This document shows positions 54,021 to 54,510 of a stretch of DNA of 64,000 nt, piece after piece. Numbering within the stretch: position 1 is the first letter of the stretch; the number at the start of each line of letters is the position of its first letter. Origin of the DNA: Escherichia coli (GTDB lineage: Bacteria; Pseudomonadota; Gammaproteobacteria; Enterobacterales; Enterobacteriaceae). The stretch lies in NCBI RefSeq assembly GCF_041248615.1, contig NZ_CP158426.1; one strand, written 5' to 3'. A program made the position numbers and the translations under genes. The notes under the pieces are model-generated. The model saw nothing but the letters and a program-made list of their open reading frames with translations. It did no database searches and had not been told where the DNA came from.

Positions 54021-54510
54021 GGTAAGCCGGATAAGGCGCTCGCGCCGCATCCGGCAACGATGCCGACTGCCTGATGCGACGCTTGCGCGTCTTATCAGGC
54101 CTACAAATTCCCGCACCCTCCGTAGGCCGGATAAGGCGTTTACGCCGCATCCGGCAACAGTGCCGACTGCCTGATGCGACGCTTGCGCGTCTTATCAGGC
54201 CTACAAATTCCCGCACCATCCGTAGGCCGGATAAGGCGTTTACGCCGCATCCGGCAACGGTGCCGACTGCCTGATGCGACGCTTGCGCGTCTTATCAGGC
54301 CTACAAATTCCCGCACCCTCCGTAGGCCGGATAAGGCGTTTACGCCGCATCCGGCAACAATGCCGACTGCCTGATGCGACGCTTGCGCGTCTTATCAGGC
54401 CTACAAATTCCCGCACCCTCCGTAGGCCGGATAAGGCGCTCGCGCCGCATCCGGCAACGATGCCGACTGCCTGATGCGACGCTGACCGCGTCTTATCAGG
54501 CTTCCCTCTC
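54021..54510. repeat. BIME/REP array: about 4.9 tandem copies of a 100-bp unit, each with two REP palindromes
   Basis: cgtaggccggataaggcg recurs at 54121, 54221, 54321, 54421 (exact 100-bp period); units carry the canonical REP cores gccggatgcggcg / cttatcaggcctac. Confidence 0.85.

Follow-up and report, generated by a model that had tools for sequence, protein, structure and literature searches.

The analyzed DNA is a 64,000-nucleotide stretch of Escherichia coli (contig NZ_CP158426.1 of assembly GCF_041248615.1; hereafter, the window), in which the interval between yjdM (phnA) and yjdN (phnB) holds a five-unit tandem array of repetitive extragenic palindromic (REP) sequences. This array is an allele of REP325, a named, already known, and experimentally studied E. 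coli element that belongs to class 2 of the bacterial interspersed mosaic elements (BIME-2) and is the source of the naRNA1-6 RNAs (naRNA, nucleoid-associated noncoding RNA). We consider it highly probable that the window copy is a noncoding BIME-2 of five units, transcribed with yjdM, that serves as a 3' untranslated region (3'-UTR) device and a leaky attenuator and whose unit number shifts by recombination or slippage. Anatomy, strand, fold, family membership, allele series, and coding signal were computed here; transcription, stabilization, attenuation, and partial Rho dependence come from published work on the six-unit allele of K-12. An earlier note on this DNA, which described the repeat, missed its REP325/naRNA4 identity and the disputed functional literature that accompanies it.

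Tandem Repeats Finder delimited the array at 54022-54501 (480 bp; period 100, 4.8 copies, 95% matches, 0% indels, score 853), and it was the sole tandem array with a score of at least 80 across the window. Start-to-start spacings given by a direct-repeat finder run on the array were exactly 100, 100, and 100. The location is extragenic, between the yjdM stop (54007) and the yjdN start (54567), with 14 nt separating the yjdM stop codon from the start of the array. According to the register print-out, a unit is composed of GTAG, a 30-nt Y palindrome, a 12-nt S linker, a 32-nt Z2 palindrome, and CTAC; modules 1 to 4 are closed by a 17-nt linker, AAATTCCCGCACC(C/A)TCC, and module 5 lacks both the CTAC tail and the linker. 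The complete REP325 BIME-2 array (54022..54501, plus strand), as delineated by Tandem Repeats Finder, the register print-out, and REP pattern matches, therefore comprises five Y-S-Z2 modules and four inter-unit linkers.

A pattern search located five Y-type REPs of 30 nt each, all with 0 mismatches, on the minus strand (54026-54055, 54126-54155, 54226-54255, 54326-54355, and 54426-54455), whose foot tetranucleotide on the plus strand is GTAG, or GTAA for unit 1. Four exact Z2-type REPs, each followed by CTAC, were found in the same way on the plus strand (54069-54100, 54169-54200, 54269-54300, and 54369-54400), and the register print-out adds a fifth (54469-54501, plus strand), which has one more nucleotide in its loop and is not followed by CTAC. 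The number of Y and Z2 pattern matches expected in shuffled sequence is 0. Between the Y and Z2 heads, the 12-nt S linker reads AC(G/A)(A/G)TGCCGACT. The four 17-nt tail-to-tail linkers (54105-54121, 54205-54221, 54305-54321, and 54405-54421, plus strand) are C-rich and G-poor on the transcribed strand: the unit 3 copy has 9 C and 1 G among its 17 nt, and the unit 2 variant, CACCATCC, has 8 C. Base differences among the units are confined to hairpin loops and linkers. Each of units 1, 2, 3, and 4 can be told from the others by bases in its linker or loops, and unit 5 is set apart by its terminal Z2 loop, TGACCGC, one nucleotide longer, and by the right edge; the Y-S half of unit 5 equals that of unit 1 except for one base. 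An inverted-repeat finder returned no inverted pairs. This blank reflects a limit of the tool, whose 9-nt exact seed misses the short bulged REP stems (7+4 and 8+5 bp), and does not count against the palindromes, because folding and pattern searches reveal them. Thus, the earlier description of about five tandem 100-bp units in the yjdM-yjdN interval, each with two oppositely oriented REPs, was sound, with Y on the minus strand and Z2 on the plus strand. Its term "exact" applies to the 100-bp period and fails for the sequence, as the units are 95 to 97% identical. A clustered regularly interspaced short palindromic repeat (CRISPR) array was rejected as a reading of this periodicity, since the "spacers" are mutually identical and each period holds two different palindromes. 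Elsewhere in the window, isolated Y-type REPs occur at 35509-35538 (3 mismatches) and 62321-62350 (1 mismatch), and there is no other BIME array.

The identity of the element is established first by its RNA family. Rfam RF02564 (naRNA4, "nucleoid-associated noncoding RNA 4," also called CssrE) matches all five units on the plus strand, which is the yjdM strand, with 89.6 to 111 bits against a gathering score of 59.5; on the minus strand, the model reaches 52 to 54 bits, below the threshold. The naRNA-type units lie at 54025..54101 (unit 1, 99.7 bits), 54125..54201 (unit 2, 108.9 bits), 54225..54301 (unit 3, 111 bits, the best match to the naRNA4 model), 54325..54401 (unit 4, 106.8 bits), and 54425..54502 (unit 5, terminal, 89.6 bits), all on the plus strand. 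In addition to the above-threshold scores, the array has the 77-nt two-hairpin RNA in units 1 to 4, the yjdM-yjdN spacer location, and the yjdM strand that go with this family. Likewise, BIME-2 elements have been defined by z2 and y REPs, a short S linker, s/l/r flanks, and multiple tandem copies (PMC3333891), and the array is a BIME-2 by this definition: Y and Z2 alternate in inverse orientation around an S linker, tandem copies are joined by tail-to-tail motifs, the feet are GTAG and CTAC, the site is extragenic, and the copy number varies among strains. Other members, such as those at sucC-sucB and tldD-yhdP, share the inverse Y and Z2, the short head-to-head linker, the tail-to-tail linkers, the tandem extragenic arrangement, and the strain-variable copy number; in contrast, the 17-nt linker junction of the window array is unique to the yjdM-yjdN locus in E. 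coli genomes.

In K-12, REP325 occupies the space between yjdM (phnA) and yjdN (phnB), contains six Y/Z2 repeats, and is transcribed as naRNA1-6 (PMC4550694). The window array and that of K-12 MG1655 coincide in locus, flanking genes, left boundary (TTGTATTGTGATCG followed by GTAAGCC...), 100-bp Y-S-Z2-linker unit, strand, and two-hairpin RNA fold. They differ in unit number (five in the window versus six in K-12), in the terminal Z2 loop (TGACCGC versus TCGCGC), in the right edge of the array (GGCTTCCCTCTC versus GGCCGCCTCTC), and in their S-linker variants; in the window, units 1 and 5 share a GCTCGC Y loop. Our literature search combining phnA/phnB and REP returned the 2015 paper alone (PMC4550694), older phn-operon papers on E. 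coli B and K-12 being beyond its reach.

The related BIME-1 class, also described as RIP or RIB elements, resembles the window array in having inverted REP pairs at the 3' ends of transcription units. However, BIME-1 elements are defined by z1 and y REPs and a long L linker with an integration host factor (IHF) site, and occur as single copies (PMC3333891), whereas the window array combines Z2 with Y around a 12-nt S linker. The IHF consensus, WATCAANNNNTTR, has four matches in the window and none within 54000-54520. A BIME-1 or IHF-binding RIP was consequently rejected on the grounds of the 12-nt linker, the Z2 type of the second REP, and the lack of an IHF consensus in the array. For the same reasons, the IHF binding that the earlier note attributed to such arrays does not apply to this one, as IHF binds the L linker of BIME-1 (PMC3333891), which is absent here.

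Folded as RNA of the yjdM strand, each 77-nt module of units 1 to 4 forms two stable GC-rich hairpins as its minimum free energy (MFE) or near-MFE structure, at about -42 to -43 kcal/mol with z-scores of -4.6 to -6.0 (unit 1, -42.4 kcal/mol and z = -4.6; unit 2, -42.8 and -5.6; unit 3, -42.8 and -4.8; unit 4, -42.3 and -6.0), and 0 of 200 shuffles folded as stably as the module RNAs. The MFE structure of unit 5 RNA is a long Y:Z2 hairpin (-43.4 kcal/mol), favored over the two hairpins by about 1 kcal/mol. Since each of Y and Z2 is a partial, inverted copy of the other, this alternative single long hairpin is nearly iso-energetic with the two-hairpin form, and it is the centroid or MFE structure for units 1 and 5, the antisense strand, and the DNA unit. 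As DNA hairpins, the Y REP has -12.2 kcal/mol (z = -4.5) and the Z2 REP -11.6 kcal/mol. An inverted REP doublet of about 77 to 100 nt that can fold as one long hairpin is also the hallmark that the window unit shares with REPINs (REP doublets forming hairpins); REPINs, however, disperse as single doublets, whereas the doublet of the window was amplified on site, as tandem copies joined by a linker specific to the locus.

No terminator-like hairpin followed by a T-tract was found inside 54022-54501 on either strand; what follows the hairpins of the array is either CTAC-AAATTCCC or the S linker. A series of intrinsic (Rho-independent) terminators was rejected since no T-tracts follow the hairpins, and this same lack fits a nonintrinsic type of attenuation. 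From the base composition, we infer that the C-rich, G-poor linkers resemble what is expected of a Rho utilization segment, and such C-rich stretches would be what Rho uses.

We adopted a local 3'-UTR regulatory role as the working model because it agrees with the match to the RNA model on the sense strand, the stability of the hairpins, the lack of T-tracts after them, and the C-rich composition of the linkers. According to this model, transcription from the yjdM promoter would run through the array on the strand matched by the naRNA4 model, and the RNA of each unit would form two GC-rich hairpins. The series of hairpins would block 3'-to-5' decay into yjdM and thereby stabilize its mRNA. Read-through into yjdN would also be limited by the array, working as an attenuator that is leaky and depends partly on Rho. 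Such attenuation would yield a ladder of hairpin-ended RNAs, the "naRNAs," and the unit number would change through replication slippage or unequal recombination involving the 100-bp units, which are nearly identical.

REPs act as mRNA stabilizers or attenuators at other operons, for example, malE-malF. Like REP325, those are GC-rich intercistronic 3' hairpins that protect the upstream mRNA and lower downstream expression; REP325 differs from them in having up to 10 to 14 hairpins in perfect periodicity, in that the dual effect has been measured at the locus, and in showing Rho dependence with the full array only. Rho termination dependent on REPs at other operons is also cited in a 2026 preprint on REP325 in K-12 (bioRxiv 10.64898/2026.03.23.713779).

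The experiments on K-12 provide the functional side of this model. Transcription of REP325 from the yjdM promoter was proposed in the 2015 study (PMC4550694). According to the preprint (bioRxiv 10.64898/2026.03.23.713779), the RNA ratio of yjdM to yjdN was about 35 with REP325 in place and about 1 after its deletion, and plasmids without REP325 gave about 160-fold-lower yjdM mRNA and about 8-fold-higher yjdN mRNA. Furthermore, REP325 transcripts formed a ladder of hairpin-ended species, and bicyclomycin raised read-through from 23% to 39% with the full array only, not with fragments of two or four hairpins. Stabilization of the upstream mRNA, which the earlier note had given as a known property of such arrays, has therefore been measured for yjdM at the K-12 REP325 locus. 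By analogy, we infer that the five-unit allele would behave as the six-unit allele of K-12 does.

It is important to consider several points that weigh against this interpretation. The Rho dependence reported is just partial, an in vitro Rho-binding screen did not recover REP325, and a Northern blot did not detect the endogenous yjdM transcript (bioRxiv 10.64898/2026.03.23.713779). The functional evidence comes entirely from the six-unit K-12 allele, and much of it from plasmid overexpression and from a preprint that is not peer reviewed. The unit number, terminal Z2 loop, and right edge of the window allele are not those of K-12. Finally, the peer-reviewed study (PMC4550694) assigns another, global role to REP325.

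Unit number was quantified in two evenly stepped samples (58 and 59) of complete E. coli genomes, about 115 of them distinct, by means of a flank-only query whose span gives the array length. One unit was the most frequent state (69 genomes, 60%), and 2, 3, 4, 5, 6, and 7 units were found in 9 (8%), 3 (3%), 5 (4%), 9 (8%), 17 (15%), and 2 (2%) genomes, respectively, with a divergent allele in 1 genome (1%); this RefSeq sample is biased, as K-12 derivatives swell the six-unit class and O157 swells the two-unit class. The inter-unit junction, searched with a 50-nt query across it, is present in 2172 of 5426 complete genomes (40%), which agrees with the multi-unit share of the sample. In K-12, the junction occurs at exactly five places, corresponding to its five linkers, and nowhere else in that genome. 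The variation among strains claimed in the earlier note, which proposed a comparison of unit number across genomes, is thus borne out by a range of 1 to 7 units in about 115 genomes.

Alignment of one example per length showed that the outer boundaries are fixed and that lengths differ by whole 100-bp units, from 1 to 7. Several of the alleles correspond exactly to crossover products of other alleles. In the one-unit allele of strain Ecol_316, unit 1 of the window is joined to unit 5, and the flanks are 100% identical to those of the window. The window allele without unit 4 is identical to the four-unit allele of Ec-FL1-1X, the five-unit allele of BL21(DE3) equals that of K-12 minus one unit, and one seven-unit allele is the K-12 array with a duplicated unit 3. 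Since the five-unit alleles of the window and BL21 are different haplotypes, their equal length arose independently. In W3110-P (NZ_CP084899.2), the four units correspond to MG1655 without units 3 and 4, and the breakpoint falls between units 2 and 4, which are identical; this state may reflect a collapsed assembly or else a deletion that took place on a laboratory timescale. Strain gb37 is also a laboratory K-12 derivative showing four units versus six in MG1655. The divergent allele belongs to strain 100248 (NZ_CM128594.1), which has a 20-bp insertion just past the yjdM stop, one full unit, the variant linker AAATTCTCGCACCATCC, and then a degenerate Z2 without Y; strain 100117 has a span similar to that of this allele.

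Outside E. coli, 120 loci were retrieved from species-representative genomes with a degenerate pattern for the conserved yjdM 3' end. The adjacency of yjdM and yjdN is widespread in Enterobacteriaceae, with spacers of 80 to 200 nt and a conserved yjdN leader, the latter being found in spacers of Escherichia, Citrobacter, Enterobacter, Salmonella arizonae, and Pseudocitrobacter. Among the retrieved loci, E. coli-type Y/Z2 REPs were present only in Escherichia sp. E1V33 (two units with the linker AAATTCTCGCGCCATCC), a divergent genome labeled "E. coli" (two degenerate units), Pseudocitrobacter faecalis (one unit), and one contig of a metagenome-assembled genome (MAG). Enterobacter, Citrobacter, and Salmonella arizonae each carry one REP-like hairpin of their own genus type directly after the yjdM stop. 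These hairpins suggest that a hairpin at this site has been either maintained or repeatedly acquired. An exact scan of the species-representative genomes for the junction CAGGCCTACAAATTCCCGCACC gave no match; the linkers of sister Escherichia have diverged, and the E. coli representative has one unit only or was not covered by the scan. In Pseudocitrobacter, Z2 is followed on its right by CTAC-AACCTCCCGCCCCCTCA..., which matches the E. coli linker, CTAC-AAATTCCCGCACCCTCC, at 13 of 17 positions. This likeness, along with the locus-specific junction, suggests that the 100-bp unit consists of the BIME plus a piece of its right flank and was amplified in place by local tandem duplication.

Two observations from this search concern the retrieved loci themselves. 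The MAG contig, USCO01000113.1 of "uncultured Clostridiales bacterium UMGS1583" (7180 bp, coverage 2.9), a species-representative MAG, bears yjdM of E. coli and stops after 81 nt of the REP unit, which looks like E. coli contamination with a break within the repeat. The pattern for the YjdM C terminus also matched several Enterococcus genomes, in which no yjdN lies downstream at the matched loci; conservation of the 12 C-terminal residues of YjdM thus extends far beyond Enterobacterales.

Among the alternatives to the local 3'-UTR role, a function at the DNA level has the best standing. The array could be a strong, transcription-independent gyrase site or a topological insulator between the yjdM and phn units, which would be compatible with a role as RNA; by analogy with other members of the class, we regard this as possible, at the level of a tentative suggestion. 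Gyrase cleavage at BIME-2 elements was reportedly described by Espeli and Boccard in 1997. In a Topo-seq study, BIME-2 elements were cleaved by gyrase in vivo, mainly in Y REPs, and were overrepresented among the Topo-seq sites, and the BIME-2 signal increased with rifampicin (PMC6379681). The window array, for its part, offers five Y REPs. On the contrary, the same study reports cleavage at just "a subset" of BIME-2 loci, naming sucC-sucB and tldD-yhdP, and the supplementary text searched mentions none of yjdM, yjdN, phnA, or REP325.

A selfish or neutral origin deserves less credit, and we consider it unlikely that the array is simply a REPIN-like repeat, locally amplified, possibly with the aid of TnpA-REP (also RAYT, the REP-associated transposase), without a selected host function at this locus. 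The inverted partial-copy relation of Y and Z2 and the nearly iso-energetic long hairpin of the 77-nt unit do amount to a REPIN-like fold, the unit number of REP325 is highly polymorphic and homoplastic, and a RAYT association of REP325 has been predicted by others. Additionally, in vitro, BIMEs undergo cleavage and recombination promoted by TnpA-REP, and BIME-2 loci are known to vary in copy number (PMC3333891). However, deletion of REP325 alters the expression of both neighbors and growth (bioRxiv 10.64898/2026.03.23.713779), and other genera hold a REP-type hairpin of their own family at the same site after the yjdM stop. Moreover, the inter-unit linker is locus specific, which means that local duplication, not repeated insertion, enlarged the array.

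A global role in nucleoid organization, in which naRNA4-type RNAs and HU bridge cruciform REP DNA and condense the nucleoid, appears doubtful to us for this locus. The 2015 study (PMC4550694) recovered REP325 RNA by RNA immunoprecipitation with microarray detection (RIP-chip) of HU, observed by transmission electron microscopy a decondensed nucleoid upon REP325 deletion that naRNA4 from a plasmid restored, found that contacts in chromosome conformation capture (3C) required HU and REP325, and saw by atomic force microscopy that HU plus naRNA4 condensed DNA. In agreement, the five window units match the naRNA4 covariance model and fold into the two required hairpins, and both REPs fold as DNA hairpins. 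Nevertheless, the preprint, which has an author in common with the 2015 study, found that the nucleoid area was unchanged on REP325 deletion or overexpression, that HU, the cruciform, and naRNA4 formed no stable ternary complex, and that Hi-C did not show REP-REP enrichment (bioRxiv 10.64898/2026.03.23.713779). The antisense RNA and unrelated terminators were equally effective in vitro (PMC4550694), which indicates that the nucleoid effect is not sequence specific. Finally, the single-unit state of about 60% of E. coli genomes is hard to square with an essential architectural role.

Regarding the length of the array, a collapsed or expanded assembly is a very improbable explanation of the five units. 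It is true that the 480-bp array exceeds a short read and that its internal units are 95 to 100% alike, that the four units of W3110-P versus six of MG1655, with the breakpoint between identical units, could be a collapse, and that the MAG contig ends within the array. Against this, the 1701-bp sequence that includes the five-unit array is 100% identical in an independent complete genome, CP028764.1 (strain A10), and two five-unit haplotypes occur across several unrelated complete genomes, including BL21(DE3). Furthermore, units 1 to 4 are distinguishable by linker and loop bases and unit 5 by its Z2 loop and the right edge, so a collapse would be detectable. The five-unit length of the window array is thus unlikely to be an artifact.

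The repeat also generates open reading frames (ORFs) on both strands, listed on the plus strand at 54074-54274, 54174-54374, and 54274-54474 (66 aa each) and 54374-54520 (48 aa) and on the minus strand at 54240-54512 (90 aa), 54140-54316 (58 aa), 53853-54116 (87 aa), and 53752-54219 (155 aa), the 87- and 155-aa ORFs running antisense through yjdM. The repeated peptide motif quoted in the earlier note is present in these ORFs. Each plus-strand ORF takes its initiating ATG from the Z2 motif CTGATGCG, and those of 66 codons stop at the TGA of that motif 200 nt, or two units, further on. Because 100 equals 1 modulo 3, the frame changes from one unit to the next, and the arithmetic of the repeat determines ORF length. 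The plus-strand ORFs gave no Pfam or NCBIfam match, and the 90- and 155-aa minus-strand ORFs no family match; an exact look-up of five of the sequences (54074-54274, 54174-54374, and the 58-, 90-, and 155-aa ORFs) in a collection of about 15 billion predicted proteins found none of them. About 60% of genomes carry the one-unit allele, from which the plus-strand ORFs are missing, and the differences between units lie in RNA loops and linkers, without a codon pattern.

Annotation by the NCBI Prokaryotic Genome Annotation Pipeline (PGAP) places no coding sequence in the array in 10 of the 11 RefSeq records inspected. The eleventh, NZ_CP169632.1 (strain L-formLTE), has a "hypothetical protein" pseudogene at 620-928 (minus strand) of the extracted locus, flagged as frameshifted and incomplete, which implies that some reference protein set contains a REP-derived ORF; misannotation of the array as a gene is real but rare. 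That one or more of these ORFs encode a genuine arginine-rich small protein, as their lengths of 48 to 155 codons, their ATG or GTG starts on both strands, and this single pseudogene call might suggest, has practically no chance of being correct in view of the missing family and protein-collection matches, the loss of the plus-strand ORFs in the one-unit allele, and the flags on the pseudogene. The repeat ORFs are accidental and nongenic, as the earlier note had maintained. Therefore, the eight ORFs in 53752-54520 should not be called genes, and the appropriate label for the interval is REP325/naRNA (Rfam RF02564).

The flanking genes are both encoded on the plus strand. yjdM (53672..54007) encodes a zinc-ribbon protein of 111 aa (Pfam PF03831 and PF08274; NCBIfam TIGR00686; RefSeq annotation of identical DNA), and yjdN (54567..55010) encodes a metalloprotein of the VOC family of 147 aa (NCBIfam NF007537, 1.9e-97; Pfam PF00903/PF06983). 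The conserved yjdN leader (ACTACACTTAAC...CTGAGGT...) occupies 54528..54566 of the plus strand and includes a ribosome-binding site, GAGG, at 54555-54558. A consensus scan pointed to a candidate sigma-70-like promoter, CCGACA-17-TATAAT, upstream of yjdM (53576..53604, plus strand), which may serve both yjdM and the array.

At a broader scale, the window is 100% identical to strain A10 (NZ_CP028764.1) over 53400-55100 and about 99% identical elsewhere, with two extra insertion sequence (IS) elements; it comes from a related strain, different from A10, that shares the yjdM-REP325-yjdN haplotype. The first element absent from A10 is an IS1 copy at 4365-5132 (768 bp), located between the entericidin (ecnA) side and efp; its minus-strand ORFs resemble InsA (91 aa) and InsB (167 aa). 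The second belongs to the IS3 family (about 27341-28597, about 1257 bp) and has orfA/orfB-like ORFs of 115 and 348 aa. An Rfam match to the "isrC Hfq-binding RNA" at 27408-27530 (150 bits) falls within the left end of this IS3-family element, and for that reason it is probably IS derived and not a free-standing small RNA (sRNA) gene. Rfam also identified a guanidine-II (mini-ykkC) riboswitch at 1834-1880 (minus strand), adjoining a sugE/gdx-like ORF, and the sRNA STnc630 at 48196-48361 (minus strand), near pmrR/pmrB. A tRNA-Phe (GAA) was located by ARAGORN at 16527-16602 (plus strand), which in strain A10 is followed by an integrase fragment. At phnM, around 63775-63795, the A10 copy is annotated as frameshifted; the window differs from A10 there by about 39 nt, and its copy, which runs off the window end, is probably intact.

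These results emphasize that the six-unit K-12 allele used in all experiments is a minority state in a species in which most genomes are single unit and the range extends from 1 to 7. The locus-specific "U" spacer, the independent origin of equal lengths, and this minority status of the K-12 allele bear on the dispute between a global nucleoid role and a local 3'-UTR role. On a more speculative note, and with clearly less confidence than in the local 3'-UTR role itself, unit number might be a fast-evolving heritable "rheostat" for the yjdM/yjdN ratio, given that Rho attenuation would need several hairpin pairs and C-rich linkers, that is, at least two units. If this were true, the approximately 60% of E. 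coli with a single unit, and hence no linker, and the approximately 40% with 2 to 7 units would express yjdM and yjdN differently. Unequal recombination would then switch lineages between states, possibly even within K-12 stocks (four units in W3110-P, six in MG1655). Consequently, the six-unit "model REP" of K-12 would be atypical, and conclusions drawn from K-12 may not generalize to the species.

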